DNA from: Gammaproteobacteria bacterium
Lineage (GTDB): Bacteria; Pseudomonadota; Gammaproteobacteria; Eutrophobiales; Eutrophobiaceae
Assembly (NCBI GenBank): GCA_965220815.1
Contig: OZ244846.1
Location: 1,987,620-2,051,619 of the forward strand
DNA length: 64,000 bases
Reading direction: 5' to 3'
The position numbers and the translations under genes were made by a program. The notes beneath the pieces were generated by a model. That model did not search any database and was not told the DNA's origin. It was given only the letters and a program-made list of their open reading frames with translations. Position 1 is the first letter of the stretch, and the number at the start of each line of letters is the position of its first letter. Positions 1,985-54,100 of this stretch are shown piece by piece.

Positions 1985-2106
1985 TGATTTTTCCCGATTA
2001 TAAAATATGGATTATACAGAATTAACATTAGGCACCTCTGATTAATTCAGAGGCTCCATTATTGCATCTGCGCTAATCTGCGCCATCTGCGGATCAACCT
2101 GCGTAA

Positions 2107-3930: not shown

Positions 3931-4845
3931 ATGCGAACGACAACACTGTTTCCGCTGGGGGCCGTCGCCATCAGCGTTTTTTCCTTCCTCTGTCCCGAAG
4001 CGCTGCTCCCTTTCAGGGGATACATCGTCCCGCTGCTCGGCCTGGTCATGCTGGGCATGGGTATGACCCTGCTCCCGGATGATTTCCGGAACGTGATCAG
4101 GAGTCCGAAACCGGTCACGATCGGCGTTGCCCTGCAGTTCATCCTGATGCCGTTTATCGCCTGGCTGCTGTCGGAGTCCATGGGCCTGCCGCCGGAACTG
4201 GCCCTGGGCATGGTGCTGGTGGGTTCATGCCCCGGCGGCACCGCATCCAATATCATCTGCTACCTGGCGAAAGGCGAGGTGGCCGTATCGATTACCCTGA
4301 CGGCCGTGTCCACGGTGCTGGCGGTACTGCTGACGCCGTTGCTGACCTGGGTATACATCGGGCAGAAAGTCCCCGTGCCGGTGTTGGCCATGATGTTTAA
4401 TATCTTTACCATCATCCTGGCGCCGGTCACCCTGGGCGTGTTAATCAATTACCGGTTCGGTGACAGGATACGGCCGGCCAAACGCGTCTTTCCGGGACTG
4501 TCCGCGGTTGCCGTCGTTTTGATCATCGGTATCATAATTGCCAATACCCGTGACCAGCTGGCGTTGCTTGCGGCGCCGGTTATCACCGCAGTATGCCTGC
4601 ACAATTTATCCGGCCTGGCCGGCGGCTATTGCCTGGCATGGCTGTTCGGGTGTGACAAACGCATCCGGCGCACCCTGGCCATTGAAGTGGGCATGCAGAA
4701 TTCCGGACTTGCAATCGCCCTGGTCGAACTGACGAAGTTTCCGCTGGCCGCCGCGTTGCCCGGCGCCCTGTTCAGCGTCTGGCATAATATCAGCGGTTCA
4801 CTGTTGGCAGCCTTGTGGGGACGGGAGTCAGGGGTTAGGGGCTAG
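3931..4845 (+). CDS. bile acid:sodium symporter (BASS) family transporter
   Basis: 304 aa polytopic membrane protein with BASS-family motifs (GMTL, LVGSCPGGTASN, EVGMQNSGLA). The track ORF 3181..4845 carries an artefactual N-extension overlapping the divergent PQQ gene. Confidence 0.8.
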   Translation: MRTTTLFPLGAVAISVFSFLCPEALLPFRGYIVPLLGLVMLGMGMTLLPDDFRNVIRSPKPVTIGVALQFILMPFIAWLLSESMGLPPELALGMVLVGSCPGGTASNIICYLAKGEVAVSITLTAVSTVLAVLLTPLLTWVYIGQKVPVPVLAMMFNIFTIILAPVTLGVLINYRFGDRIRPAKRVFPGLSAVAVVLIIGIIIANTRDQLALLAAPVITAVCLHNLSGLAGGYCLAWLFGCDKRIRRTLAIEVGMQNSGLAIALVELTKFPLAAALPGALFSVWHNISGSLLAALWGRESGVRG

Positions 4846-4888
4846 GGGTTAGGGGGAAATAACGACCTTTTGTCCCATTTACCAATCA

Positions 4889-5494
4889 CTAGTCCCTAGC
4901 CCCTGGTTCCTGACAACTGATGATGCGCTTCTCCGTGATGATCTTCTCCACCCGCACGTCTGTACTGGTGACCGGCATATCATCCACGATCTGGCATTCA
5001 TAACACAGCGCCACCCGCGCGCTCCGGGGATGCGCGGCAAACCACTTGTCATAATAGCCCCTGCCGTAGCCGATACGCCTGCCGTCCGGGGTAAAACCCA
5101 GGCCCGGCGTGATACAGAGGTCCGCCTCTCCGGGCCATTCCTCGTCTGAGTCCGGCGTGAGTATGCCGAGTTGTCCGACCTGCAACCTGTCCCAGCCGTC
5201 AAACTCCACGGCGATCATTTTTTCACGGTTGAGTATCCTCGGGATCAGCACTGTTATACCCGACCCGCGCAGGCAGTCGATGATGCCGCGGGTATCCACT
5301 TCCATCTCCGCCGACACGTAACAGAAAACCGTACCGGCCGGCGCCGCCTGCTCCAGCAGGCGTGCGCGAATGGCCCGGTCGTATTCCGGCCGCAGCCGCT
5401 GCGGCAGTTCCCTGCGTTTTTGCTTCAGGAAATGCCGCAGGCGCGCTTTCTCCCGCGCAGGTGTTGCCTCGTCTGTAACAGGGGTGGTTTCCAT
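4889..5494 (-). CDS. 5-formyltetrahydrofolate cyclo-ligase
   Basis: Roughly 200 aa. Characteristic GYGRGYYDK motif and conserved upstream acidic/Gly motifs. Start taken at the ATG METTPV. Confidence 0.8.
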   Translation of the reverse strand: METTPVTDEATPAREKARLRHFLKQKRRELPQRLRPEYDRAIRARLLEQAAPAGTVFCYVSAEMEVDTRGIIDCLRGSGITVLIPRILNREKMIAVEFDGWDRLQVGQLGILTPDSDEEWPGEADLCITPGLGFTPDGRRIGYGRGYYDKWFAAHPRSARVALCYECQIVDDMPVTSTDVRVEKIITEKRIISCQEPGARD

Positions 5495-7504: not shown

Positions 7505-7507
7505 ATT

Positions 7508-7693
7508 TATCCACAGATTACGCAGATTAACACAGATGTTTCACTGTAAAGATGCGTATAAAACTCGTTATTCAAGGAACCATCTGATTAGGTCAGAGCT
7601 TCCTTAAATTATGTTGTGTAAATTTATGGGGACAGAATTAATTCTGTCCCCGGCCTGAAAATAATCTGTGTTAATCTGTGTAATCTGTGGATA
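7508..7693. mobile_element. MITE-like inverted-repeat element A (186 bp) filling the rplS-xerD intergenic region
   Basis: 31-bp terminal inverted repeats, TA|TCCACAGATTACGCAGATTAACACAGAT ... ATCTGTGTTAATCTGTGTAATCTGTGGA|TA, flanked by TA. Internal AGGAACC..TCTGATTA..GGTTCC-type hairpin at 7574-7607 and a GGGGACAGAATTAATTCTGTCCCC hairpin. Starts 3 nt after the rplS stop. Confidence 0.7.
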
Positions 7694-7710
7694 AAACATG
7701 GCGGTAGTTT

Positions 7711-13946: not shown

Positions 13947-16259
13947 ATGAAAACACAACATCACAAAACATACTACATAAGCCACATTCTGATTCCGGCC
14001 GTGGCCGGTTTGCTGTTATGTTCCGGTGCAGCCCGGGCCCAGGTGCTCGAGGAGATCGTGGTCACCGCGCAAAAGCGCGCGGAAGACCTGCAGGACACGC
14101 CGGTTGCCGTAACCGCGTTCACCGGGGAGCAACTGCAGCAGGCCGGTGTTTATGATGCCATCGGGCTCAGCAACGTCGTACCCAATGTGACCATAGGCAC
14201 CGAAGACGCCAGGGACGCAATTTTCATCAATATACGCGGCATTTCCCAGTCGGAACGCAGGAATACCTCGGACCCGACTACCGCGTTCTACATGGACGGC
14301 GCCCTGGTGCCGCGCATGTCCGGCGTCAACGCCTACTTTTACGATGTTGAGCGCATCGAAGTGCTGCGCGGCCCACAGGGCACGCTGTACGGTCGCAACA
14401 GCACGTCGGGAGTGGTCAATGTTATTACCAGGAAACCCGACCTGGAAGCGTTCGGGGGCGATATCCAGGTGGGTTACGGTAATTACGATGCGGTTGATGT
14501 AAGAGGCGCCCTGAATGTGCCTTTTTCAGACAGTTTCGGCGCGCGCGTCGCGTTCACCTATAACGAACGGGATGGTTACCGGGACAACAGTCCGGTTGCC
14601 GACGGCGACGACCTGGATGATGTCGGCGTGCGCGGCCACCTGCTCTGGGATATCACTGAAAATACCTCGCTGCTCCTCTCGGCGGACTACTATGAACACC
14701 AGGGTGTCGGACCGGTGCTGGCCCAGGTGGAATGCCCCGACCTCGGGTGCAACATCCCGATACCCCCGGACCCTGCCGACGCCAACCCGCTCAATACGGA
14801 AGGTTTTCGCGATAATACGGATACGAATTTCAAGGTCGAACTGAACCACTCGTTCCCGTTTGCCGACCTGACCTTCATCGGTTCCTACCGGGACCATGAA
14901 CGGGATTACCTGATGGATACCGACGGCACCGGCGCTTCCGTCTTCCTGCCGCCTGCCGGCAGGTTGGTTCCTATCGACACCATTGTCGTGGAACAGACGG
15001 AATCCGAGTCATTTTCGGGCGAACTCCGTTTGAATTCCAACACGGACGGCCGCTTCCAGTGGATCCTGGGGGGCTTTTACCTGGATGAGGATATCGCGGG
15101 CGATTTCCGTTACCAACCGGTGTTGCCGAACGGCGCGCACTTGAATGTGCAGTTTGTCGATAAAGGTTTCAACGTGGAGTCCTGGGCGGTGTTTGCCAAT
15201 GCTTCCGTGGATGTCACCGACCGGTTCACCCTGAACGGCGGCATTCGTTATACGGAAGATGAGAAAGACAAGGGCGGCGTCAACGACCCCGCCAATCCTA
15301 CGGCCGGCAGTTATATGACGGTCACCGTAAGAGAACTCGGCAGGCCCGTCGCGCCGGTATTTCCCCGCGCCCAGGTGTCGAATCCGTCCTGGAGTGAGGT
15401 TACTTATTCGTTCGGTCTTGACTGGCATATCAACGACGACACTCTTGTCTATATCAAGACCAGCAAGGGTTTCAAGTCGGGCGGTTTCAACCGCGGCAGC
15501 GTGGATCCCTTTCAACCGAGCGGCGCGCCCAATGTAGCAAACCTGATCGTCTATAACCCGGAGCAGGTGCTCGCCACGGAAGGCGGCATCAAATCCACTT
15601 TCATGGACGGCCGCGCCCGCGCTAACTTCAGTCTGTTCTGGTATGACTATTCCGACAAGGAGGAAGCCGTGGTGCGCGTCATTGGCGGGATCCCGACCAA
15701 TACGGCGATCAACGCGGGGCAGGCAACCATTTACGGGGCGGAACTGGAAACCTCGTTCCTGTACGGCGATCATGGCGGGCGCATCGATCTCAACATCGGC
15801 TGGCTGGATGCGGAATTCGATGAATTCGTCGGCCTGGACGATCCCCTGACGGCCGGCCAGGACAACCTGGACCTGGGCGGCGGTGAAATGGTCAATGCGC
15901 CGGACTGGAACATCAGCGCCACCTGGGTGCCCGTCGAGCTGGAAGTAATGAATGGAATATTACATCCCATGGTCCAGTTTTCGTTCAAGTCAGACTATAT
16001 AACACGGCCCCATAATCAATCGGTAGACCAGCAGGATTCCTACACCCGCACCAATGCAAGCCTGCACTGGGAATCCAGCAAAACCGGCCTGTTCCTGGAA
16101 GGTTTCGTGCATAACATAGAGAACGAGGACATCCAGACCGTATCGACGTGTCAACAGCAAGTCAATGGCGTGGCGGGAACACCCTTCCCCGGACTGGGCT
16201 GTACCCATATGTATCAACCGCCCCGCACCTACGGCGTGCGGCTGGGGTACAGGTTCTAG
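13947..16259 (+). CDS. TonB-dependent outer-membrane receptor
   Basis: Signal peptide, then a TonB-box/plug (EEIVVTAQKRAEDLQDTPVAVTAF), a 22-strand barrel body and a C-terminal aromatic residue (RLGYRF). RBS AAGGGGG precedes the ATG at 13947. Confidence 0.85.
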   Translation: MKTQHHKTYYISHILIPAVAGLLLCSGAARAQVLEEIVVTAQKRAEDLQDTPVAVTAFTGEQLQQAGVYDAIGLSNVVPNVTIGTEDARDAIFINIRGISQSERRNTSDPTTAFYMDGALVPRMSGVNAYFYDVERIEVLRGPQGTLYGRNSTSGVVNVITRKPDLEAFGGDIQVGYGNYDAVDVRGALNVPFSDSFGARVAFTYNERDGYRDNSPVADGDDLDDVGVRGHLLWDITENTSLLLSADYYEHQGVGPVLAQVECPDLGCNIPIPPDPADANPLNTEGFRDNTDTNFKVELNHSFPFADLTFIGSYRDHERDYLMDTDGTGASVFLPPAGRLVPIDTIVVEQTESESFSGELRLNSNTDGRFQWILGGFYLDEDIAGDFRYQPVLPNGAHLNVQFVDKGFNVESWAVFANASVDVTDRFTLNGGIRYTEDEKDKGGVNDPANPTAGSYMTVTVRELGRPVAPVFPRAQVSNPSWSEVTYSFGLDWHINDDTLVYIKTSKGFKSGGFNRGSVDPFQPSGAPNVANLIVYNPEQVLATEGGIKSTFMDGRARANFSLFWYDYSDKEEAVVRVIGGIPTNTAINAGQATIYGAELETSFLYGDHGGRIDLNIGWLDAEFDEFVGLDDPLTAGQDNLDLGGGEMVNAPDWNISATWVPVELEVMNGILHPMVQFSFKSDYITRPHNQSVDQQDSYTRTNASLHWESSKTGLFLEGFVHNIENEDIQTVSTCQQQVNGVAGTPFPGLGCTHMYQPPRTYGVRLGYRF

Positions 16260-16360
16260 AGATACGGGGTCAGGTCGCACAATGCACATTCTGAATGACC
16301 CCATGTTCTTTGCGCTTCAAAAAAGACAGAATGTGCATTGTGCGACCTGACCCCGTATCT
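16260..16360. repeat. 101-bp stem-loop with 34-bp perfect inverted arms downstream of the TonB receptor stop
   Basis: AGATACGGGGTCAGGTCGCACAATGCACATTCTG ... CAGAATGTGCATTGTGCGACCTGACCCCGTATCT, read directly from the sequence. Confidence 0.8.
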
Positions 16361-16408
16361 CCGGTTCATCCGGCCCCCATTGATTTTGAAGATACGTCCC
16401 TGTATCGT

Positions 16409-16442
16409 AGGAACCTCTGAGACTTTAACCAGAGGTTCCTGA
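16409..16442. repeat. REP-like hairpin, AGGAACCTCTG family, copy 1 (11-bp perfect stem)
   Basis: AGGAACCTCTGagactttaacCAGAGGTTCCT. The same arms recur at 16822, 7574 and 2028. Confidence 0.75.
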
Positions 16443-16446
16443 GTTC

Positions 16447-16815
16447 ATGCTGAAATCCATAACAATAATTCTGGTCCTGGCAGTGCCTTCATTTGCGGCG
16501 GCTGCCGGGTTTCCGACAGTTGAAACGGTCAGGCAGGTCGTCAGTTGCATGGCCGGGCTTGGCGACCAGACCGAAGAAAACCTGTTGACCTGCGCCTGCC
16601 GGCAGGACGTGATTGAAGCCGGGATAAGTTTTGAGATTTTCGAACAGGCCAGCCTGCAGGAGCGCTATAACCGGATGCCGGGCAAACGCGGCGGCCTGTT
16701 CCGTGACGATAAGATAAGCAGGGAACAACTCAAGCAGTTGAAAGACGTCAGGAAGCAGGCCCTGGCGGCATGCCCCGCAGTAAAAAAGGTCAGGCGGGCA
16801 GAGGAAGTACAGTAA
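16447..16815 (+). CDS. small secreted Cys-containing protein, hypothetical
   Basis: 122 aa with a signal peptide (MLKSITIILVLAVPSFAAAAG). Flanked on both sides by copies of the same hairpin. Confidence 0.4.
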   Translation: MLKSITIILVLAVPSFAAAAGFPTVETVRQVVSCMAGLGDQTEENLLTCACRQDVIEAGISFEIFEQASLQERYNRMPGKRGGLFRDDKISREQLKQLKDVRKQALAACPAVKKVRRAEEVQ

Positions 16816-16821
16816 ATCCGT

Positions 16822-16857
16822 TAAGGAACCTCTGATTAAGTCCAGAGGTTCCTTAAT
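16822..16857. repeat. REP-like hairpin, AGGAACCTCTG family, copy 2 (14-bp perfect stem), convergent terminator position
   Basis: TTAAGGAACCTCTGattaagtcCAGAGGTTCCTTAA, lying between the stops of convergent genes. Confidence 0.75.
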
Positions 16858-17797: not shown

Positions 17798-17874
17798 GGG
17801 GTCAGAGTAAAATCGCCGGGGGCGTCGGCAACAGCAGAGCCGCTGGTGATTTTACTCTGACCCCGGAATTTAGC
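17798..17874. repeat. stem-loop with 17-bp perfect arms between divergent genes
   Basis: GGGGTCAGAGTAAAATC ... GATTTTACTCTGACCCC. It shares a GGGGTCAG core with the 16260 palindrome. Confidence 0.7.
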
Positions 17875-21707: not shown

Positions 21708-21711
21708 GATT

Positions 21712-21880
21712 TATCCGCAGATGACGCAGATAAACGCAGATAATATTAATGTTGCAGTGCAAATTGTGTAGCACTTGTTTATACAACGAAGAATCTGAAA
21801 TGTTTGCAGACTTGAGAATACATCCTGAAGAAAAGGAAACACATAAAAACATCTGCGCTAATCTGCGTCATCTGCGGATA
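21712..21880. mobile_element. MITE-like inverted-repeat element B (169 bp)
   Basis: TA|TCCGCAGATGACGCAGATAAACGCAGAT ... ATCTGCGCTAATCTGCGTCATCTGCGGA|TA. Starts 4 nt after the xoxJ stop. Confidence 0.7.
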
Positions 21881-22618
21881 ATTTTATGCGTTCTATGGCT
21901 GTTTTCAGCGCCGCCGGCTTTCGCTGAGGAAGCGGATGAAGACGTAGAAGTAAAAGGGGCCACCATCGGCAGGATGGGCGACCCCGCAGTGGTTGACCCG
22001 AACACCTACGAGTTTGCCGACGCGGAGGTAAAACTCTGGATGGATAATCACCTCAGGAACATCGACAGCCCCGGGCGGCTCTATTATGATTTCGTCAAGC
22101 GCGGCAGTTACGAGGAAGGATTCAGTGACTCGGTATTCCTGGATATCCTCAAGGTTAATGAGGATGGCAGTAAGGACGCCGACCTGGAATTTTTCACCGC
22201 GGACAGGCAACAGGATGCCCGGCGTGATAACCTGGTCGGCATAACGGGTAACCCGGTGCTGGTTGTATACATGCAGGGTGATGTCTACGAGATGAACCGC
22301 CTTACCAACGGTAGCTGGCGTTATTTCCAGAGGCGTATCAAGTCGGCATTTGCCGAGAACGCGAAAATAGAGCCGGTTACATTCGAGTATGACGGCGCTG
22401 AGATGACAGGGGAAAAGATTTCCATCACCCCGTATGTCAACGATCCCAGGCGCAGACAGTTCGCCGCGTTCGCTCCAAAGCTTTACGAGTTTATATTATC
22501 CGACCAGGTGCCGGGGAAACTGTACCAGATCAAGACAGTCATACCGGCCGGTTCACCGGACGGTGAACCGTTGATGGAAGAGATCCTGACCCTGCAAAAC
22601 GCAGAATTCGCGAACTGA
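21797..22618 (+). CDS. hypothetical periplasmic protein whose 5' end is encoded inside MITE B
   Basis: Downstream of the MITE, ILCVLWLFSAPPAFA|EE reads as the signal h-region and cleavage site. The only in-frame start codons (21749, 21797) lie inside the MITE. The body is D/E-rich with no recognised domain. Confidence 0.4.
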   Translation, partial: EMFADLRIHPEEKETHKNICANLRHLRIILCVLWLFSAPPAFAEEADEDVEVKGATIGRMGDPAVVDPNTYEFADAEVKLWMDNHLRNIDSPGRLYYDFVKRGSYEEGFSDSVFLDILKVNEDGSKDADLEFFTADRQQDARRDNLVGITGNPVLVVYMQGDVYEMNRLTNGSWRYFQRRIKSAFAENAKIEPVTFEYDGAEMTGEKISITPYVNDPRRRQFAAFAPKLYEFILSDQVPGKLYQIKTVIPAGSPDGEPLMEEILTLQNAEFAN

Positions 22619-24350: not shown

Positions 24351-24606
24351 TATCCACAGATGACACAGATGAACGCAGATGATTTATTGTTTATTTATCC
24401 ACAGATTACACAGATTACACAGATATTTTCAGGTGTTATTTGTGTGCGTCTCCGGTTATCATTCCCGCGCAAGCAGGGACTCAACAGATAAATTCTTCCG
24501 TTTCAAAAAAAGTTTTTTACCTGCCATGTGTTTACATTCGTGATGTTAAGCAGAAGGATATGAAATCATTTCAATCATCTGTGTTAATCTGTGTAATCTG
24601 TGGATA
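24351..24606. mobile_element. MITE-like element inside the fhc operon (256 bp, two left ends and one right end)
   Basis: TA|TCCACAGATGACACAGATGAACGCAGAT, then a second TTATCCACAGATTACACAGATTACACAGAT at 24394, then the right end CATCTGTGTTAATCTGTGTAATCTGTGGA|TA at 24577-24606. The fhcA stop codon (24584-24586) lies inside the right end. Confidence 0.7.
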
Positions 24607-26260
24607 AGTCCCGTTTGCAGTCATGCACCAGCAGAGAATGCTGGTTGTAGCCTTCAAGTTCGTCCCGGCTGATTTTGAAATTCTCAAGGCTCATGGTCAT
24701 GTACCTGTCGAAGTAGCGTTTAAGGGGTTTCTCTATTCCCGGGTCGTATTCCGGTTCGACCACGTGGGTGGAGGTAGCCGGGATGGCGCAGACCTTGCCG
24801 TTCCTGACGCAGGGTTCGCCGCGCTTGAATACGTATTCCGGTTTGCCGAACATGGTCTCGAGGTTGTCGTCGGGCGTGTACACGGTGATATCCGCTATTG
24901 CCCCGATGCCGAGGTGGCCCAGGTCCCGGAGGCCCAGGCTCCGTGCCGGCGCGGCGCGGGTGATGATCGCTATCTCGTATAACGAGTATTCCCGGTCGAG
25001 TGAGGACAGGACGCTGGCGCCTGCTGCGTCCCTGTTTATCGCGCCCAGCATGTCGTTGCGGAAACTCCTGTCCATGAGCAGCCTGATCAGGTGCGGGTAA
25101 AAGGTAAACGGCGCGCCGTTGGGATGGTCGGTGGTCATGAACACGCGCCAGGGATCATTCACGAGCAGGAATATTTCCAGGCCGATGCACCACTGCAAGG
25201 CGTTGACAAAATTTTTGTCCCGGTAACGGAACGGCACCACGCCGCAGCCTGCATCGCATTCGATATCCATGCATACCCATTTTTTCGGGTTGGCATGAAC
25301 ATGTCCCCTGTGTTGCATCATGGTATCGGCGGAGGCGGTGACCGTCTGGCCGAACATGACCTGGCCTACGTCAATGGACAGGTTCGGGTTCAGGTTTACC
25401 GCCTCTGCCAACTGTGCCGCCGCGGATGAGAATTTCCTGTCCCCTTCCTGCCCGTAACTGTGGAACTGTACGTGGGTCAGGTGCATGGGTCTCCCCTCGG
25501 CCGAAGCTATGGTGTCGAGGGTCGTCCGGTAATTGCCCGGCACCCCCAGGTTGCAGGCATGGACGTGCAGCGGGTGGGGAACGCCGATGGCCTCCAGCGC
25601 ATCGAGCAGGGCGGACAGGATGGCGCGCGGCGTTAATCCGTAATATTTGTTGGATTCATCCAGGTCCAGCTTTCTCTGGTTGAACTTGAACGCGTTGATG
25701 CCTCCGGGGTTGACTACCTTGACGCCCATGGCCCGTGTTGCCTGTATGGTCCACGCCACGTAATCGTTGACAAGTTGCGAGTCCCTGTTGCGTTGTAGCA
25801 GGCGTAACAGGAAATCATCATTTCCGAGCAGGACATAAGCGCCGGTATCCAGCATGGGAGTATCGGCCATCTCCAGGTGCGACTGGCGTGCATTCACCGG
25901 CATCATGGCCGGTTCGAAACAGGAGGTATAACCCATTTCGGCATAGCGGTATCCGGTAACGAAACTGCTTGGCGCGATGCTGCCTGAACCGGAGCGCATC
26001 AGCATGTCGGGAGCAACGGGGTTGCCGGCGTGGTCCTCAGCCAGCAACATCCTGGCGATACTGACCTTGCCTCCGCCGATATGGGTGTGGATATCGATAC
26101 CGCCCGGCATGACGACGCGCCCGGCCAGGTCCAGTACCCGGTCAATCCTGCCTGCAGTCGCCGGATCGGCCAGCCTGCCGTCCTCGATATACAGGTCCAT
26201 AACCTTGCCGTCTATCCCGTTCGCCGGGTCGTAAACCTTTCCGCCTTCGAGCTTGATCAT
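24584..26260 (-). CDS. fhcA: formylmethanofuran dehydrogenase subunit A homolog (amidohydrolase), set 1
   Basis: 558 aa. Metal-dependent amidohydrolase motifs (PGGIDIHTHIGGGK ...HVHAC...). Paralogous to 31053..32690. The last 7 codons are encoded by the MITE terminal repeat. Confidence 0.85.
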   Translation of the reverse strand: MIKLEGGKVYDPANGIDGKVMDLYIEDGRLADPATAGRIDRVLDLAGRVVMPGGIDIHTHIGGGKVSIARMLLAEDHAGNPVAPDMLMRSGSGSIAPSSFVTGYRYAEMGYTSCFEPAMMPVNARQSHLEMADTPMLDTGAYVLLGNDDFLLRLLQRNRDSQLVNDYVAWTIQATRAMGVKVVNPGGINAFKFNQRKLDLDESNKYYGLTPRAILSALLDALEAIGVPHPLHVHACNLGVPGNYRTTLDTIASAEGRPMHLTHVQFHSYGQEGDRKFSSAAAQLAEAVNLNPNLSIDVGQVMFGQTVTASADTMMQHRGHVHANPKKWVCMDIECDAGCGVVPFRYRDKNFVNALQWCIGLEIFLLVNDPWRVFMTTDHPNGAPFTFYPHLIRLLMDRSFRNDMLGAINRDAAGASVLSSLDREYSLYEIAIITRAAPARSLGLRDLGHLGIGAIADITVYTPDDNLETMFGKPEYVFKRGEPCVRNGKVCAIPATSTHVVEPEYDPGIEKPLKRYFDRYMTMSLENFKISRDELEGYNQHSLLVHDCKRDLSTDYTD

Positions 26261-34502: not shown

Positions 34503-34679
34503 ATTTCAGTTCCGCAAATGCGCTGTAAGAATCAGTGAAGAATCCTCCGGCCAGGCCAGAGGAAGTAGGAACAGACAGGGATATATGCCGGCGCCATAAT
34601 CCACATCGGTTCCTGTTTATATCATTTTCCCGCGAAATCGTCAAATCCGCCTCTCCGGCCAAAATAAGCTCAGGAGTTT

Positions 34680-34779
34680 TTACAGGACACCCACGTAAAT
34701 TACAGGACACCCATGTAAATTACAGGACACCCATGCAAATTTTATGGGTGTCCTGTAATTTACATGGGTGTCCTGTAAT
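34680..34779. promoter_or_regulatory. array of five 20-bp repeats (3 direct plus 2 inverted) in the divergent fwdD/mptG promoter region
   Basis: TTACAGGACACCCA[C/T]G[T/C]AAA three times (34680-34739), then TTTTATGGGTGTCCTGTAA and TTTACATGGGTGTCCTGTAA, giving a palindromic overall arrangement. Confidence 0.7.
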
Positions 34780-34790
34780 TTCTCCCTCCC

Positions 34791-34875
34791 CGCAGATAAC
34801 ATCCGCAGATGACGCAGGTTAACGCAGATGTTTTCGGGTAAAATAATCTGCGTTAACCTGCGTCATCTGCGGATA
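34791..34875. mobile_element. minimal MITE-like element C (two terminal repeats with a 14-bp spacer)
   Basis: CGCAGATAACATCCGCAGATGACGCAGGTTAACGCAGATG ttttcgggtaaaat AATCTGCGTTAACCTGCGTCATCTGCGGA|TA. It ends 11 nt before the mptG start. Confidence 0.6.
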
Positions 34876-34885
34876 AAAAATATCT

Positions 34886-45100: not shown

Positions 45101-48100
45101 CACCAGCCGACTACGCGGCGGTGTCCAATTTTAACATTGTCATCCCCGCGGGCGCGGCCAGCCACACCAACACGTTTACCCTCACGCCCGTGAACGACAA
45201 CCTGGACGAGGAGAATGAAACGATAGACGTGACAGGCACGGTTCCCGGTTCCATCACTGTTACGCCTGCCACGGTAAGCCTCACCGACAATGACGACCCG
45301 CCCATTTTTTCCATTGCCGGTGACGCCGCGTCCGAGGGCGATGCGATTGACTTTGTTGTGACCCGCGGCGGGGCCACGGCGAACGTGGCGACGGTCAAGA
45401 TTGCCACCGCCGCCCATTCAGGTGACGATGTGAATCCTGCCGGCGCCGACGATTACACCGCGATTACAACAGCACAGACACTCAGTTTCGCCAGTGGGGA
45501 TACCAGCCAGACCGTCTCGGTACAGACGACCGAGGACGATTTATATGAGGAAGACGAGACCTTCCTGGCAGTACTGAGCGAGCCGGCGCTGGCGGAGGGA
45601 GACCCGGGCACGGGGGTGAGCATTGCGCCCAACGCCGGCAGCGCCACGGGCACGATACGGAACGATGATACCGAGCCGTCGTTTTCCATTACCGATGCCA
45701 GCGCCTCGGAAGGCGATGCCATCACCTTCACGGTGACCCGTTCCGGGGCCATGGACAATGCCGTGTCGGTATCCTGGAACACCAAGCCGGCGACCGGCGC
45801 CAATGCGGCTGCGACCTCAGATTACACGCCGGTAACAACGCCGACTCAACTGGACTTTGGCGCCGGTGTGGGCAGGGTGACGTTCACGGTCAGCACCACG
45901 GAGGACGTACTGGACGAGGGCAATGAGACCTTCCTGGTGGAGTTGACGAGTCCGGTAGGCGGCGCCATCACCACCGACGAGGCGACCGGTACTATCAACG
46001 ATGATGACGATGCACCGACTGGCATAACCTTGACAGTGGACGAGAACTCGTTCGCGGAGAATGCGGACACCGCAACGGTGACCGTCACTGCCACGGTCAC
46101 GGGCGGCACCACCTTTGCCGATACGAAGACAGTGGTGGTGAGCGTGGACGATGGCACGGCGATTTCTGGCACCGACTATGCAGCGGTGCCCGGCTTCAAC
46201 ATCGCCCTCGCTGTCGGCGCCGAGAGTGCCACCGGAACATTCAGCTTCAAACCGACGGACGACGAACTGGACGAGCCGAATGAGACACTGGACGTGACTG
46301 GGACCCTGACGGATGTGACGATCACGAAGGCCACGATCACGATCAACGACAATGATACGACGCCGAGTTTCAAGGTAGGGGATGCAAGTGCCGCGGAAGG
46401 GGAGGCATTGAGTTTCGTGGTGACGCGGGACGGTGCGACGGCAAACGTGGTGACGGTGGATTGGGCGACGGCGTTGGTGGACGGCGAGGCGTCAGCGATG
46501 GACTTCACAGCGGTGCCGGCAACGACGTTGACCTTTGCGGCGGGGGACACGACGAAGATGGTGACGGTGATGTCGACGGAGGACGTGCTGGACGAGGAGG
46601 ACGAGACGTTCGAGGTCAAGCTGACCAACCCGGCCAAGGGTGCGAGTGACCCGGGCAGCGTCCCGACGATCAGCGATGACACGGGTGAGGGGACCATCAC
46701 CGACGATGACGCGGCGCCGATGACGATGACCCTGACGGTGGATGCGGACACGGCCACGAACAACGTGCAGGGCAGCCTGGCCGAGGACGGCGGGGCGAAG
46801 ACGGTGCGGGTCACGGCCGCGATTACCGGCGCCACCCGCTTTGCCGCCGCGCAGACGGTGAGCGTGGCGGTGGGCAAGGCGATGGACAGCGCCCGGGAGG
46901 GGACGGACTACGCCACGGTGGCCGACCAGACCATCACGATTGCGGCGGGGGCGGCCAGCGGGCAGGTGGACTTCACGCTGACGCCCACGGACGATGACAT
47001 CGACGAGCCGAACGAGACGATAAGCATCGCGGGCACGCTGGCCGGTGTGACGTTCACCGACACCGTCATCACCATTACGGACGATGAGGCCCTGCCGACG
47101 CTGAGCCTGGCGCTCGGCGCAGCGTCGATTAACGAGAGCGGCAACGGCAACAGCACCGCGGTGACGGCGCGCTTGTCGGGCAAGTCCAGCGTGGACGTGA
47201 CGGTGGCGGTGGGCACGGCGCCGGGGGCGGACACGACCACCGGCGATTACACGGTGAGCGCCAACACGACGCTGACGATTGCCGCGGGGTCGACGGCGAG
47301 CACGGGGGAGGTGACCATCACCGCAGTCGATAACAAGGTGGACGCCCCGAACAAGAGCGTGACGGTCTCGGGCACGGCCAGTGGCGGCGGGGTGGCGAAC
47401 CCGGGCAACCAGACGTTGACCATCACGGACGATGACACCCGCGGCATCACCGTGACGCCGCTCACGCGCACCCTGGACGAGGTCGATGACGCGGACACCG
47501 ACGACGCTACGGAAAACCGGGCCACCTACACGGTGGTGCTCGACAGCGAGCCCACCGGCACCGTGACCGTCAACCTGGCCAGCAAGGACGGGACGGTGGC
47601 CACGGTCGGCACGGCCAGCCTGGTCTTCACCACCGCCGACTGGAACACGGTGCGCACGGTGACCGTCACCGCGGTGCCGGACATCATCGACAACACCGGC
47701 AATGCGCGCACGGTGGACATCGAGCACACGGTGGTGGCGGCGGGCACGGACTACGAGGACGAGAGTGCGGCCAGCGTGACCGTCACGGTCACCGACGATG
47801 ACGCGGCGCCGATGACGATGACCCTGACGGTGGATGCGGACACGGCCACGAACAACGTGCAGGGCAGCCTGGCCGAGGACGGCGGGGCGAAGACGGTGCG
47901 GGTCACGGCCGCGATTACCGGCGCCACCCGCTTTGCCGCCGCGCAGACGGTGAGCGTGGCGGTGGGCAAGGCGATGGACAGCGCCCGGGAGGGGACGGAC
48001 TACGCCACGGTGGCCGACCAGACCATCACGATTGCGGCGGGGGCGGCCAGCGGGCAGGTGGACTTCACGCTGACGCCCACGGACGATGACATCGACGAGC

Positions 48101-51100
48101 CGAACGAGACGATAAGCATCGCGGGCACGCTGGCCGGTGTGACGTTCACCGACACCGTCATCACCATTACGGACGATGAGGCCCTGCCGACGCTGAGCCT
48201 GGCGCTCGGCGCAGCGTCGATTAACGAGAGCGGCAACGGCAACAGCACCGCGGTGACGGCGCGCTTGTCGGGCAAGTCCAGCGTGGACGTGACGGTGGCG
48301 GTGGGCACGGCGCCGGGGGCGGACACGACCACCGGCGATTACACGGTGAGCGCCAACACGACGCTGACGATTGCCGCGGGGTCGACGGCGAGCACGGGGG
48401 AGGTGACCATCACCGCAGTCGATAACAAGGTGGACGCCCCGAACAAGAGCGTGACGGTCTCGGGCACGGCCAGTGGCGGCGGGGTGGCGAACCCGGGCAA
48501 CCAGACGTTGACCATCACGGACGATGACACCCGCGGCATCACCGTGACGCCGCTCACGCGCACCCTGGACGAGGTCGATGACGCGGACACCGACGACGCT
48601 ACGGAAAACCGGGCCACCTACACGGTGGTGCTCGACAGCGAGCCCACCGGCACCGTGACCGTCAACCTGGCCAGCAAGGACGGGACGGTGGCCACGGTCG
48701 GCACGGCCAGCCTGGTCTTCACCACCGCCGACTGGAACACGGTGCGCACGGTGACCGTCACCGCGGTGCCGGACATCATCGACAACACCGGCAATGCGCG
48801 CACGGTGGACATCGAGCACACGGTGGTGGCGGCGGGCACGGACTACGAGGACGAGAGTGCGGCCAGCGTGACCGTCACGGTCACCGACGATGACGCGGCG
48901 CCGATGACGATGACCCTGACGGTGGATGCGGACACGGCCACGAACAACGTGCAGGGCAGCCTGGCCGAGGACGGCGGGGCGAAGACGGTGCGGGTCACGG
49001 CCGCGATTACCGGCGCCACCCGCTTTGCCGCCGCGCAGACGGTGAGCGTGGCGGTGGGCAAGGCGATGGACAGCGCCCGGGAGGGGACGGACTACGCCAC
49101 GGTGGCCGACCAGACCATCACGATTGCGGCGGGGGCGGCCAGCGGGCAGGTGGACTTCACGCTGACGCCCACGGACGATGACATCGACGAGCCGAACGAG
49201 ACGATAAGCATCGCGGGCACGCTGGCCGGTGTGACGTTCACCGACACCGTCATCACCATTACGGACGATGAGGCCCTGCCGACGCTGAGCCTGGCGCTCG
49301 GCGCAGCGTCGATTAACGAGAGCGGCAACGGCAACAGCACCGCGGTGACGGCGCGCTTGTCGGGCAAGTCCAGCGTGGACGTGACGGTGGCGGTGGGCAC
49401 GGCGCCGGGGGCGGACACGACCACCGGCGATTACACGGTGAGCGCCAACACGACGCTGACGATTGCCGCGGGGTCGACGGCGAGCACGGGGGAGGTGACC
49501 ATCACCGCAGTCGATAACAAGGTGGACGCCCCGAACAAGAGCGTGACGGTCTCGGGCACGGCCAGTGGCGGCGGGGTGGCGAACCCGGGCAACCAGACGT
49601 TGACCATCACGGACGATGACACCCGCGGCATCACCGTGACGCCGCTCACGCGCACCCTGGACGAGGTCGATGACGCGGACACCGACGACGCTACGGAAAA
49701 CCGGGCCACCTACACGGTGGTGCTCGACAGCGAGCCCACCGGCACCGTGACCGTCAACCTGGCCAGCAAGGACGGGACGGTGGCCACGGTCGGCACGGCC
49801 AGCCTGGTCTTCACCACCGCCGACTGGAACACGGTGCGCACGGTGACCGTCACCGCGGTGCCGGACATCATCGACAACACCGGCAATGCGCGCACGGTGG
49901 ACATCGAGCACACGGTGGTGGCGGCGGGCACGGACTACGAGGACGAGAGTGCGGCCAGCGTGACCGTCACGGTCACCGACGATGACGCGGCGCCGATGAC
50001 GATGACCCTGACGGTGGATGCGGACACGGCCACGAACAACGTGCAGGGCAGCCTGGCCGAGGACGGCGGGGCGAAGACGGTGCGGGTCACGGCCGCGATT
50101 ACCGGCGCCACCCGCTTTGCCGCCGCGCAGACGGTGAGCGTGGCGGTGGGCAAGGCGATGGACAGCGCCCGGGAGGGGACGGACTACGCCACGGTGGCCG
50201 ACCAGACCATCACGATTGCGGCGGGGGCGGCCAGCGGGCAGGTGGACTTCACGCTGACGCCCACGGACGATGACATCGACGAGCCGAACGAGACGATAAG
50301 CATCGCGGGCACGCTGGCCGGTGTGACGTTCACCGACACCGTCATCACCATTACGGACGATGAGGCCCTGCCGACGCTGAGCCTGGCGCTCGGCGCAGCG
50401 TCGATTAACGAGAGCGGCAACGGCAACAGCACCGCGGTGACGGCGCGCTTGTCGGGCAAGTCCAGCGTGGACGTGACGGTGGCGGTGGGCACGGCGCCGG
50501 GGGCGGACACGACCACCGGCGATTACACGGTGAGCGCCAACACGACGCTGACGATTGCCGCGGGGTCGACGGCGAGCACGGGGGAGGTGACCATCACCGC
50601 AGTCGATAACAAGGTGGACGCCCCGAACAAGAGCGTGACGGTCTCGGGCACGGCCAGTGGCGGCGGGGTGGCGAACCCGGGCAACCAGACGTTGACCATC
50701 ACGGACGATGACACCCGCGGCATCACCGTGACGCCGCTCACGCGCACCCTGGACGAGGTCGATGACGCGGACACCGACGACGCTACGGAAAACCGGGCCA
50801 CCTACACGGTGGTGCTCGACAGCGAGCCCACCGGCACCGTGACCGTCAACCTGGCCAGCAAGGACGGGACGGTGGCCACGGTCGGCACGGCCAGCCTGGT
50901 CTTCACCACCGCCGACTGGAACACGGTGCGCACGGTGACCGTCACCGCGGTGCCGGACATCATCGACAACACCGGCAATGCGCGCACGGTGGACATCGAG
51001 CACACGGTGGTGGCGGCGGGCACGGACTACGAGGACGAGAGTGCGGCCAGCGTGACCGTCACGGTCACCGACGATGACGCGGCGCCGATGACGATGACCC

Positions 51101-54100
51101 TGACGGTGGATGCGGACACGGCCACGAACAACGTGCAGGGCAGCCTGGCCGAGGACGGCGGGGCGAAGACGGTGCGGGTCACGGCCGCGATTACCGGCGC
51201 CACCCGCTTTGCCGCCGCGCAGACGGTGAGCGTGGCGGTGGGCAAGGCGATGGACAGCGCCCGGGAGGGGACGGACTACGCCACGGTGGCCGACCAGACC
51301 ATCACGATTGCGGCGGGGGCGGCCAGCGGGCAGGTGGACTTCACGCTGACGCCCACGGACGATGACATCGACGAGCCGAACGAGACGATAAGCATCGCGG
51401 GCACGCTGGCCGGTGTGACGTTCACCGACACCGTCATCACCATTACGGACGATGAGGCCCTGCCGACGCTGAGCCTGGCGCTCGGCGCAGCGTCGATTAA
51501 CGAGAGCGGCAACGGCAACAGCACCGCGGTGACGGCGCGCTTGTCGGGCAAGTCCAGCGTGGACGTGACGGTGGCGGTGGGCACGGCGCCGGGGGCGGAC
51601 ACGACCACCGGCGATTACACGGTGAGCGCCAACACGACGCTGACGATTGCCGCGGGGTCGACGGCGAGCACGGGGGAGGTGACCATCACCGCAGTCGATA
51701 ACAAGGTGGACGCCCCGAACAAGAGCGTGACGGTCTCGGGCACGGCCAGTGGCGGCGGGGTGGCGAACCCGGGCAACCAGACGTTGACCATCACGGACGA
51801 TGACACCCGCGGCATCACCGTGACGCCGCTCACGCGCACCCTGGACGAGGTCGATGACGCGGACACCGACGACGCTACGGAAAACCGGGCCACCTACACG
51901 GTGGTGCTCGACAGCGAGCCCACCGGCACCGTGACCGTCAACCTGGCCAGCAAGGACGGGACGGTGGCCACGGTCGGCACGGCCAGCCTGGTCTTCACCA
52001 CCGCCGACTGGAACACGGTGCGCACGGTGACCGTCACCGCGGTGCCGGACATCATCGACAACACCGGCAATGCGCGCACGGTGGACATCGAGCACACGGT
52101 GGTGGCGGCGGGCACGGACTACGAGGACGAGAGTGCGGCCAGCGTGACCGTCACGGTCACCGACGATGACGCGGCGCCGATGACGATGACCCTGACGGTG
52201 GATGCGGACACGGCCACGAACAACGTGCAGGGCAGCCTGGCCGAGGACGGCGGGGCGAAGACGGTGCGGGTCACGGCCGCGATTACCGGCGCCACCCGCT
52301 TTGCCGCCGCGCAGACGGTGAGCGTGGCGGTGGGCAAGGCGATGGACAGCGCCCGGGAGGGGACGGACTACGCCACGGTGGCCGACCAGACCATCACGAT
52401 TGCGGCGGGGGCGGCCAGCGGGCAGGTGGACTTCACGCTGACGCCCACGGACGATGACATCGACGAGCCGAACGAGACGATAAGCATCGCGGGCACGCTG
52501 GCCGGTGTGACGTTCACCGACACCGTCATCACCATTACGGACGATGAGGCCCTGCCGACGCTGAGCCTGGCGCTCGGCGCAGCGTCGATTAACGAGAGCG
52601 GCAACGGCAACAGCACCGCGGTGACGGCGCGCTTGTCGGGCAAGTCCAGCGTGGACGTGACGGTGGCGGTGGGCACGGCGCCGGGGGCGGACACGACCAC
52701 CGGCGATTACACGGTGAGCGCCAACACGACGCTGACGATTGCCGCGGGGTCGACGGCGAGCACGGGGGAGGTGACCATCACCGCAGTCGATAACAAGGTG
52801 GACGCCCCGAACAAGAGCGTGACGGTCTCGGGCACGGCCAGTGGCGGCGGGGTGGCGAACCCGGGCAACCAGACGTTGACCATCACGGACGATGACACCC
52901 GCGGCATCACCGTGACGCCGCTCACGCGCACCCTGGACGAGGTCGATGACGCGGACACCGACGACGCTACGGAAAACCGGGCCACCTACACGGTGGTGCT
53001 CGACAGCGAGCCCACCGGCACCGTGACCGTCAACCTGGCCAGCAAGGACGGGACGGTGGCCACGGTCGGCACGGCCAGCCTGGTCTTCACCACCGCCGAC
53101 TGGAACACGGTGCGCACGGTGACCGTCACCGCGGTGCCGGACATCATCGACAACACCGGCAATGCGCGCACGGTGGACATCGAGCACACGGTGGTGGCGG
53201 CGGGCACGGACTACGAGGACGAGAGTGCGGCCAGCGTGACCGTCACGGTCACCGACGATGACGCCGCGCCGGGCGGGATTGCGCTCTCGGTCTCCCCGGC
53301 CTCGGTGGGCGAGGGGGCCGGGGAGACGGAGGTGACGGTGACGGCCACGGTGGGCGGGGCCTCCCGTTACGAGGCGGCGCAGACGGTGGCGGTGAGCGTG
53401 GGCGGGGGTACGGCCACCGCCCCGGCGGACTATGCGGCGGTGGCGGGGTTTAACATTGTCATTGCCGCGGGGGCGGTGAGCGCGACCGGCACGTTCGACC
53501 TGACGCCGGTGGACGATGCGCTGGCGGAGGGCAACGAGACCATCGACGTGACGGGCGTCGCCGGCGCGCTGGACGTGACCGACACGGAGATTACCCTTAA
53601 CGACGATGACACCGCGCCCACGGCGCTGACCCTGACGGTGGATGCGGACACGGCCACGAACAACGTGCAGGGCAGCCTGGCCGAGAACGGCGGGGCGAAG
53701 ACGGTGCGGGTGACGGCGACCCTGGACGGGGCCGGGCGCTTTACCGAGGCCAAGACCGTGACGGTGGCGGTGGGCAAGAACACGGACGGCGCCCGGGAGG
53801 GGACGGACTACGCCGTTGTCGCCGACCTGAGCATCGTGATTGCGGCGGGGGAAGGCAGCGCGCACGCGGACTTCACGCTGACGCCGACCGATGACGCCCT
53901 GGCGGAGGGCAGCGAGACGATAAGCATCGCGGGCACGGTGGCCGGGCTGAGTGTCACCGACACTGAAATTACCCTTAACGACGATGACGTGGCGCCCACG
54001 GGCATCACGGTCACGGTGGACGTGGACCCGGACACGGTCGGCGACCAGACCAGTCTGGCCGAGGACGCCGGGGCGCGCACGGTGACGGTGACCGCCGCGG

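Follow-up and report, generated by a model that had tools for sequence, protein, structure and literature searches.

A striking feature of the 64,000-nucleotide stretch analysed here (contig OZ244846.1, positions 1,987,620 to 2,051,619; hereafter the window, over which we examined the host sequence) is a set of short inverted-repeat elements with ends built from CAGAT repeats, inserted beside core genes of a methylotrophic gammaproteobacterium. This raises the question of what kind of element they are, and what spreads or maintains them. The original prediction, made from the sequence alone, saw in them miniature inverted-repeat transposable elements (MITEs) of the IS630/Tc1-mariner type that might also titrate DnaA. 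The repeats are neither IS630-type MITEs nor DnaA sites. In other genomes the same arms enclose one small gene for a protein of the GxxExxY family, and we consider it probable, at roughly 70%, that the loci in the window are gene-less derivatives of a family of GxxExxY mini-elements, with a logic closest to that of the REPIN-RAYT system.

A dispersed family of convergent CAGAT arms

The recurring unit is a 28-31-nt module, (R)TCC-RCAGAT-nnC-RCAGAT-nnnC-RCAGAT (R, A or G), of which the window holds ten copies where none is expected. Nine match the degenerate 28-mer TCCRCAGATKAYRCAGATWAAYRCAGAT with at most three mismatches, against an expectation of 0.00 from 100 dinucleotide-preserving shuffles, and the tenth was added by a profile search. 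An arm consists of (R)TCC and three C-R-CAGAT heptamers spaced 9 and then 10 bp, roughly one helical turn, instead of the strict 10-bp phasing first proposed, and the two arms of an element converge. The expectation of a dispersed family bounded by inverted repeats is borne out, since copies are present in many genomes beyond the window. The exact module pattern occurs in at least 28 IMG/VR contigs and a slightly looser one in at least 119 genome stretches from at least ten phyla with GC contents of 33-72%, all counts from the IMG/VR and genome-collection scans being lower bounds. The listed taxa are Verrucomicrobiota, Planctomycetota, Chloroflexota, Acidobacteriota, Nitrospirota, Spirochaetes, Armatimonadota, Bacteroidota and one cyanobacterium, together with delta-, beta- and gammaproteobacteria. 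A profile built from the listed stretches (given below as L001 and so on) found 359 modules among the matches listed. Modules that lie within 1 kb of each other converge in 98 cases, the other three orientations accounting for 26, 21 and 17, and pair lengths in the profile search peak at 60-110 bp, which makes the "minimal" element D of the window the typical form.

Variants of the module, with CCACAGAG x3 or CACGGAG x3, were found at 13 loci. A 460-bp pair of the CACGGAG type in L018 was set aside as a gene-bearing element, its cargo being an unrelated zinc-finger-like phage ORF (open reading frame) and not GxxExxY. On the phage-like contig L013, inverted modules at 296 (+) and 1705 (-) flank an apparent major capsid gene, so that distant pairs need not form one element; the same contig carries a second widespread repeat at ~300-520, 2195-2560 and 4750-4900, translated as VGAIHELPL in several ORFs.

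The full-length element encloses a GxxExxY gene

The full-length form of the element measures about 420-550 bp and contains one GxxExxY ORF, with its stop codon in the right arm. Pairs of this length in L115, L122 and L239 each enclose a single ORF, which scores 2e-41 against TIGR04256 (GxxExxY protein) and 3e-38 against PF13366 (PDDEXK_3), and GxxExxY is the sole gene inside the 420-550-bp pairs examined; in L052 the gene is present, and the two arms closest to it point the same way. Among the genes neighbouring 148 module loci, no family recurs broadly except the GxxExxY cluster. The physical coupling extends to the codons themselves. In L229 the left arm follows the sdhA stop, and after 18 nt an ATG opens a 129-codon ORF that is separated by 22 nt from the sdhB start; the last codons and the TAA of this ORF are supplied by the right arm. 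In 82 of the 120 closest homologues the C-terminus reads N-L-R-x-S-A, the translation of ATCTGCG-nnn-ATCTGCG in the right arm, and most of the remaining ones end in recognisable variants; the tail is found in Thiosymbion, Sulfuricella, Accumulibacter, Gallionellales, Chloroflexi and Nitrospinae. Some homologues begin PQITQI..., which is the left arm read in frame.

Other clades of the protein have arms of their own, which abut the start and stop codons. A second GxxExxY clade (34% identical) has the CAGAT tail in 0 of 116 members, and its genes in L106 and L247 are bounded by the inverted repeat CACGCAAAG-G-CGCAAAG-A-CGCTAAGAT, again three phased units (CRCAAAG x3). The GxxExxY gene of a Sphingomonas at fabD|fabG (L264) lies between inverted repeats of CGCGAAG x3, and that of a Treponema (L263) within a 24-bp inverted repeat without obvious triplication. 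In L106 a single contig carries both types, CAGAT arms around a clade-1 remnant and CAAAG arms around a clade-2 gene, which argues for specific pairing of gene clade and arm type. Short elements in L054 and L106 retain C-terminal GxxExxY remnants, so that the gene-less hairpins are at least partly deletion derivatives.

The arms could alternatively be an independent repeat family, with GxxExxY genes inserting into pre-existing hairpins as into a landing pad. Other repeat families do occupy CAGAT loops in L029 and L149, and arms of the CACAGAG and CAGAT types are nested either way round (CACAGAG-type arms around a CAGAT hairpin in L087, 1580-1760; the reverse in L029, 2489-2683), which suggests that hairpin centres are favoured as insertion points of these families. 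Against such an origin, the junction between protein end and arm, KR(M/L)V, is near-constant, with the stop codon in the arm, in those 82 of 120 homologues across many taxa and contexts, and the inverted-repeat family differs from clade to clade among the GxxExxY genes examined, even where two clades share a contig. We regard independent insertion as improbable.

A small nuclease maintained by selection

The enclosed ORF encodes about 125-130 residues and belongs by family (TIGR04256 / PF13366 PDDEXK_3) to the minimal Cas4/RecB-like PD-(D/E)XK nucleases. Its AlphaFold2 model has a mean pLDDT of 90.0 and a pTM of 0.84; D67 and K79 are invariant, E77 is nearly so, and the motif glutamate is conserved. 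The family is large, with 27,707 cluster representatives (50% identity) at E ≤ 1e-3, and was found in 8 of 72,556 plasmid records and in none of 50,697 deposited phage genomes. A single-protein search of viral contigs returned no confirmed relative and a sequence search of solved structures no match, while PADLOC and PHROGs gave weak Cas4 matches and one function-unknown family. For three homologues, about 78% identical, at sdhA|sdhB, the nonsynonymous substitution rate (dN) is 0.11-0.15, the synonymous rate (dS) is saturated and dN/dS is 0.04-0.07. The adjacent sdhB has a similar ratio of 0.05-0.07, indicating that the GxxExxY ORF is maintained by selection.

Intact genes are co-directional within essential operons (sdhA|sdhB in L229, L239 and L265; fabD|fabG in L264) or within a polysaccharide cluster (L247), with spacers of 2-50 nt and no own promoter evident at any of these loci. 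A 2012 survey of PD-(D/E)XK proteins listed PF13366 as function-unknown, with multiple transfers between divisions. Our literature searches for GxxExxY, PF13366 and TIGR04256 gave incidental mentions only, those with the arm sequence as text gave no match, and neither inverted repeats nor gene-less derivatives have, as far as we could find, been described for GxxExxY genes.

Anatomy of the elements in the window

The ten modules of the window make up four hairpin-type elements (A to D) and one solo arm, each in a short spacer beside a core gene, as follows.

2064-2097, minus strand: solo arm, G-type (module 2066-2093, from the pattern/profile search), 12 nt past the stop of a pyrroloquinoline-quinone (PQQ) dehydrogenase gene (xoxF/mxaF-like) and followed by a GCCTCTGA...TCAGAGGTGCC hairpin
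7507-7539, plus strand: left arm of element A, A-type (ACAGAT / GCAGAT / ACAGAT; module 7510-7537), 3 nt past the rplS stop
7540-7661, plus strand: interior of element A, with a diverged AGGAACC-type hairpin at 7574-7605 and a perfect GGGGACAGAATTAATTCTGTCCCC hairpin at 7628-7651
7662-7694, minus strand: right arm of element A (module 7664-7691), its end 16 nt ahead of the xerD GTG start (7711)
21710-21743, plus strand: left arm of element B, G-type (module 21714-21741), 4 nt past an xoxJ-like stop
21849-21881, minus strand: right arm of element B (module 21851-21878), an in-frame part of the downstream ORF (...NICANLRHLRIILCVLWLF...)
24351-24383, plus strand: outer left arm of element C (module 24353-24380), its end 10 nt from the minus-strand fhcD start
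24395-24424, plus strand: inner, second left arm of element C (the module added by the profile search), with unit spacing 9 + 9
24574-24607, minus strand: right arm of element C (module 24577-24604), which on the minus strand gives the last seven fhcA codons (LSTDYTD) and the TAA stop
34800-34876: element D, the minimal hairpin, with arms at 34800-34831 (plus strand; module 34802-34829) and 34843-34876 (minus strand; module 34846-34873), both with a rare CAGGT variant

All the copies named in the original prediction are present and pair as it described, including the duplicated left end of C, and their positions next to the rplS and xoxJ-like stops and across that of fhcA were given correctly. 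The arms are 87-97% complementary over 32-38 nt and hence form terminal inverted repeats; the right arm of element C finds its better partner in the inner left arm, not in the outer one. Element D is located in a divergent spacer ahead of a GHMP-kinase gene. The interiors vary between copies, as had been noted: those of A, B and C are not shared and have no further match, the sequence inside A being confined to the rplS|xerD locus. A search of Rfam at the gathering threshold with window positions 1-40000 gave no match. Intrinsic terminators were considered and ruled out, the stems being of at least 30 bp and followed by YAAA, as opposed to a short GC-rich stem with a U run.

Arms have been absorbed into neighbouring genes. 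One supplies the C-terminus and stop of fhcA, another what appears to be the N-terminus of the ORF downstream of element B (21800-21886), which runs through the right arm (KNICANLRHLRIIL...) before a signal-peptide-like hydrophobic stretch; the only in-frame ATG, GTG or TTG codons ahead of that segment are inside element B.

The window contains several other repeats. The hairpin inside element A is, as suggested earlier, of the AGGAACC...GGTTCC family, and is a diverged AGGAACCTCTGA...TCAGAGGTTCCT copy; a second diverged copy lies at ~2040-2065 beside the solo arm. Two AGGAACCTCTGA-loop-TCAGAGGTTCCT hairpins, at 16409-16440 and 16824-16853, flank a 122-residue signal-peptide ORF (16447-16815), which we considered as a possible cargo gene and rejected, as it has no Pfam match and is not GxxExxY. 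Directly upstream of element D, ~20-bp units (AAATTACAGGACACCCATGT) are repeated within a 38-52-nt inverted repeat (34673-34785), an arrangement of direct repeats within inverted arms like that of the CAGAT elements, with a different sequence. Directly 3' of a TonB-dependent receptor gene, at 16259-16361, two 35-nt arms (GAGATACGGGGTCAGGTCGCACAATGCACATTCTG) form another palindromic element, a perfect inverted repeat around a 33-nt loop. Finally, a 5,830-residue tandem-repeat ORF occupies 46492-63984 on the minus strand (Tandem Repeats Finder: period 378 bp, 28.5 copies, 53331-63833); nested ORFs in this region recur every ~1,092-1,104 bp, and the preceding 38.7-46.5 kb holds short ORFs only.

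Flanking sequences and DnaA boxes

An origin as IS630/Tc1-mariner-type MITEs would make the elements deletion derivatives of a DDE transposon that insert at TA, duplicate it and are moved by an insertion sequence elsewhere. Terminal inverted repeats and a short, dispersed and intergenic form are in keeping with this, as is the TA found locally at eight of the ten window arms; the bracket is not consistent as had been claimed, since 34800 has CA and the solo arm GA. Across the family, 39 complete pairs were tested for target-site duplications at offsets 0-4 and lengths of 2-8 bp, and no direct repeats were found. In these pairs the base adjoining TCC is A in 69-74% and G in 21-28%, which makes the presumed "A" an R; one base further out, T occurs in only about half, and TA stands on both sides in just 14. 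Three related copies in L001 start with ATCC, end with GGAT and have unrelated flanks. The full-length IS630-type partner that had been envisaged did not emerge either, as no DDE transposase is present in 101 pairs and none recurs at 148 loci. Given further that copies share no interiors and that the arms travel with a PD-(D/E)XK gene, we judge a MITE origin very improbable.

The other part of the original prediction, that the arms might serve as scattered sites for titrating DnaA or be bound as an array by a CAGAT-recognising host protein, draws on the heptamer spacing of about one helical turn and on the fact that all four exact TTATCCACA boxes of the window lie within arms. A box at every terminus was an overstatement: TTATCC(A/G)CA is present at seven of ten arms and exact TTATCCACA at four, and these window boxes occur only in the A-type variant. 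The consensus TTATNCACA is not conserved in the repeat, requiring as it does both the derived A variant and a non-conserved T, and outside the window 12 of 211 arms (6%) read TTATCCACA. No regulator or other gene is recurrent beside the module, and conservation of such sites would be unexpected across phyla that differ in DnaA box usage and GC content. Of the explanations considered here, this one has the least to commend it.

Orthologous sites: persistence, truncation and loss

At rplS|xerD, arms occupy the same place in L029 (~91% nucleotide identity in the flanks) and L149 (XerD 84-85% identical). Both sets of arms are G-type, and the interiors are unrelated to that of element A: the loop in L029 contains a nested CACAGAG-type element and that in L149 (1340-1440) a GGGGTCAGAGTAAAATC hairpin, a family with a member, GGGGTCAGAGTAAAATC...GATTTTACTCTGACCCC, at 17798-17864 of the window. 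The module is absent from this locus in more distant gammaproteobacteria that share the rplS-xerD synteny. At two loci, almost every R position of both arms distinguishes the A-type copies of the window from the G-type copies of relatives, which could reflect parallel C-to-T change in a CG context or gene conversion.

At fhcA|fhcD, the comparison of orthologous loci envisaged in the original prediction gave all three states, a full hairpin, a solo arm and an empty site. The native FhcA tail ends in ...VHDC(K/R) before the stop, whereas that of the window reads ...VHDCK-RDLSTDYTD; in about 15 relatives (82-84% identity) it is ...KQDLSADDAD, the translation of a G-type arm. Complete hairpins are present in L261 and L262, with an interior that near the right arm looks, by eye, homologous to that of element C, L259 has a solo left arm, and the site is empty in L258 (TGTAAACAATAACCATG), with flanks almost identical to those of L259. 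The spacer of the empty allele measures 2 nt, so that any tolerated insertion must adjoin the stop codon, which accounts for the preference for gene 3' ends proposed earlier. In two other close relatives, L257 (3160-3265) and L260 (3155-3345), the spacer holds another palindromic repeat, CCAACAGGTTGGGATAG...CTATCCCAACCTG, in place of a CAGAT element, and the FhcA tails, ...CLQI before the stop, include a lone GCAGATCTG. The elements at the window sites are old residents that undergo truncation and loss, and at two of these sites their descent among related methanotroph genomes has been vertical.

This persistence bears on whether the stems are kept by the host, for transcript stability or processing (by RNase III, as with certain copies of REP/BIME, ERIC or Correia elements) or for cistron insulation, the link to a mobile gene being historical. 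The arms are retained at rplS|xerD and fhcA|fhcD while interiors and spacer diverge, elements lie between co-transcribed genes, and the stems are very stable, RNA folding giving -84.8 kcal/mol (z -12.1) for element A and -57.9 (z -13.1) for element D, with uninterrupted stems of at least 30 bp. Partner arms also co-vary. They agree at 6.15 of 8 variable positions, compared with 5.33 when non-partners from one locus are matched and 4.03 for arms drawn at random, and in an alignment of 30 distinct elements (A4) 90.4% of cells pair versus 84.5% with shuffled partners, with 77 changes on both sides versus 37.5, neither observed value being reached in 500 shuffles. Where partners disagree at R positions, G in the 5' arm with T in the 3' arm, a G.U pair, is seen seven times versus one A.C, the orientation relative to transcription being resolved for a minority of elements only; the G.U pair of element C is, however, an A.C mismatch on the transcribed strand. 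Close relatives with a solo arm or nothing at fhcA|fhcD also show that this locus can do without the stem, about 157 of the 359 modules are unpaired, and the same sequence in at least ten phyla and on phage-like contigs is hard to reconcile with a local host function. Host selection of the structures is thus unlikely as the main explanation, albeit the most credible of the alternatives to a GxxExxY mini-element.

Relation to known systems

The closest parallel is offered by REPIN-RAYT systems (PMC3116915, PMC3337134), in which inverted doublets of short units likewise form hairpins scattered in intergenic DNA, many copies are non-coding and few encode a protein, and the protein gene is flanked by inverted units; such units persist for long and pass on mostly by vertical descent, purifying selection acts on the protein, and the target site is not duplicated. 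Membership in REPIN-RAYT nevertheless fails on both defining features, and the resemblance is one of logic: the protein of the CAGAT family is a ~125-residue PD-(D/E)XK nuclease instead of a Y1 HUH transposase, and the unit consists of three direct heptamers without GTAG instead of a GTAG-headed palindrome. In addition, the ORF stop lies within the CAGAT unit, and the CAGAT family is one sequence across many phyla, whereas REP classes are lineage-specific.

Likeness to MITEs and to rRNA intervening sequences is one of form only. The Correia elements of Neisseria and IS630-derived MITEs resemble the CAGAT elements in their inverted repeats of 26-31 bp, length of 70-260 bp, gene-adjacent insertion, co-transcription and potential long RNA stems, and in the TA flanks seen locally in the window; the CAGAT family differs in having no consistent duplication of TA or another site, no DDE parent and no shared interiors, and in arms built from phased direct repeats. 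The 23S rRNA intervening sequences with an S23p ORF (a four-helix-bundle protein; Coxiella, PMC4990558) are also selfish insertions of a few hundred bases with pairing inverted repeats, which enclose one small ORF and are tolerated in an essential transcription unit. The CAGAT elements, however, reside in operon spacers of mRNA and not in rRNA helix 25 or 45, and their cargo is a PD-(D/E)XK nuclease; excision by RNase III belongs to the intervening sequences. A GxxExxY gene wedged between co-directional conserved genes also recalls the free-standing homing endonuclease genes of phages. These are single small nuclease genes between co-directional conserved genes with no own promoter evident, and they usually decay after fixation; we know of none with inverted-repeat arms or gene-less hairpin derivatives. 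The GxxExxY genes, by contrast, show a dN/dS of ~0.05 over deep divergence.

A possible mechanism and its weight

Several observations weigh against a GxxExxY mini-element as the source of the window loci. Most hairpins lack a recognisable gene remnant, and a profile search covering six frames of both the window and the element interiors found no significant GxxExxY gene or remnant, which is why we class the window elements as gene-less derivatives. Four exact look-ups of full-length genes each returned one context across many samples (sdhA|sdhB for three, a polysaccharide cluster for one), so that the sampled full-length copies look static and vertically inherited and not recently mobile. The empty L258 allele has an extra Q codon before the stop that matches filled alleles, and may be a deletion product. 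Finally, the covariation of partner arms fits matched-master descent, homogenisation of the palindrome or selection for pairing equally well.

Mobilisation by the GxxExxY nuclease is what we infer from these sequences, and it could proceed as follows. From a full-length copy, in which the ORF begins a few tens of bases past the left arm and ends within the right arm, the nuclease may recognise the phased heptamers and drive the spread or maintenance of full and gene-less copies alike. The arms would serve as cis sites for a trans-acting nuclease of the matching clade, a division of roles like that between REPINs and RAYT. Movement would leave no target-site duplication, possibly because the extruded palindrome is cut in a structure-specific way. 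Copies transcribed within operons would fold into stems of at least 30 bp, plausible substrates for RNase III. The loops of the window copies receive other palindromic repeats. A more general proposition is that GxxExxY proteins are the nucleases of an unrecognised class of ~440-bp mobile elements with clade-specific phased-heptamer inverted repeats, which move or are maintained without target-site duplication and seed gene-less hairpins, the repeats of the window among them, across most bacterial phyla; this is a tentative proposition that we would at present rather doubt than believe.

For the genomes concerned, the elements matter in two ways. They sit inside essential operons (rplS|xerD, fhcA|fhcD, sdhA|sdhB, fabD|fabG), and they rewrite gene ends that annotation has to deal with, such as the C-terminus and stop of fhcA and the region in which the ORF past element B starts. 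If true, the proposed origin would account for a sequence that, with its variants, is strewn through the intergenic DNA of many environmental genomes and adds spurious tails to peptides (NLRESAKSAD, PQITQI...). The link to the arms also gives GxxExxY/PDDEXK_3, which comprises tens of thousands of clusters annotated by motif name only, a first functional context. Should the nuclease indeed drive the repeats, the family would be a second system of the REPIN-RAYT kind, working by a different mechanism, or else the smallest DNA element known to be autonomous.

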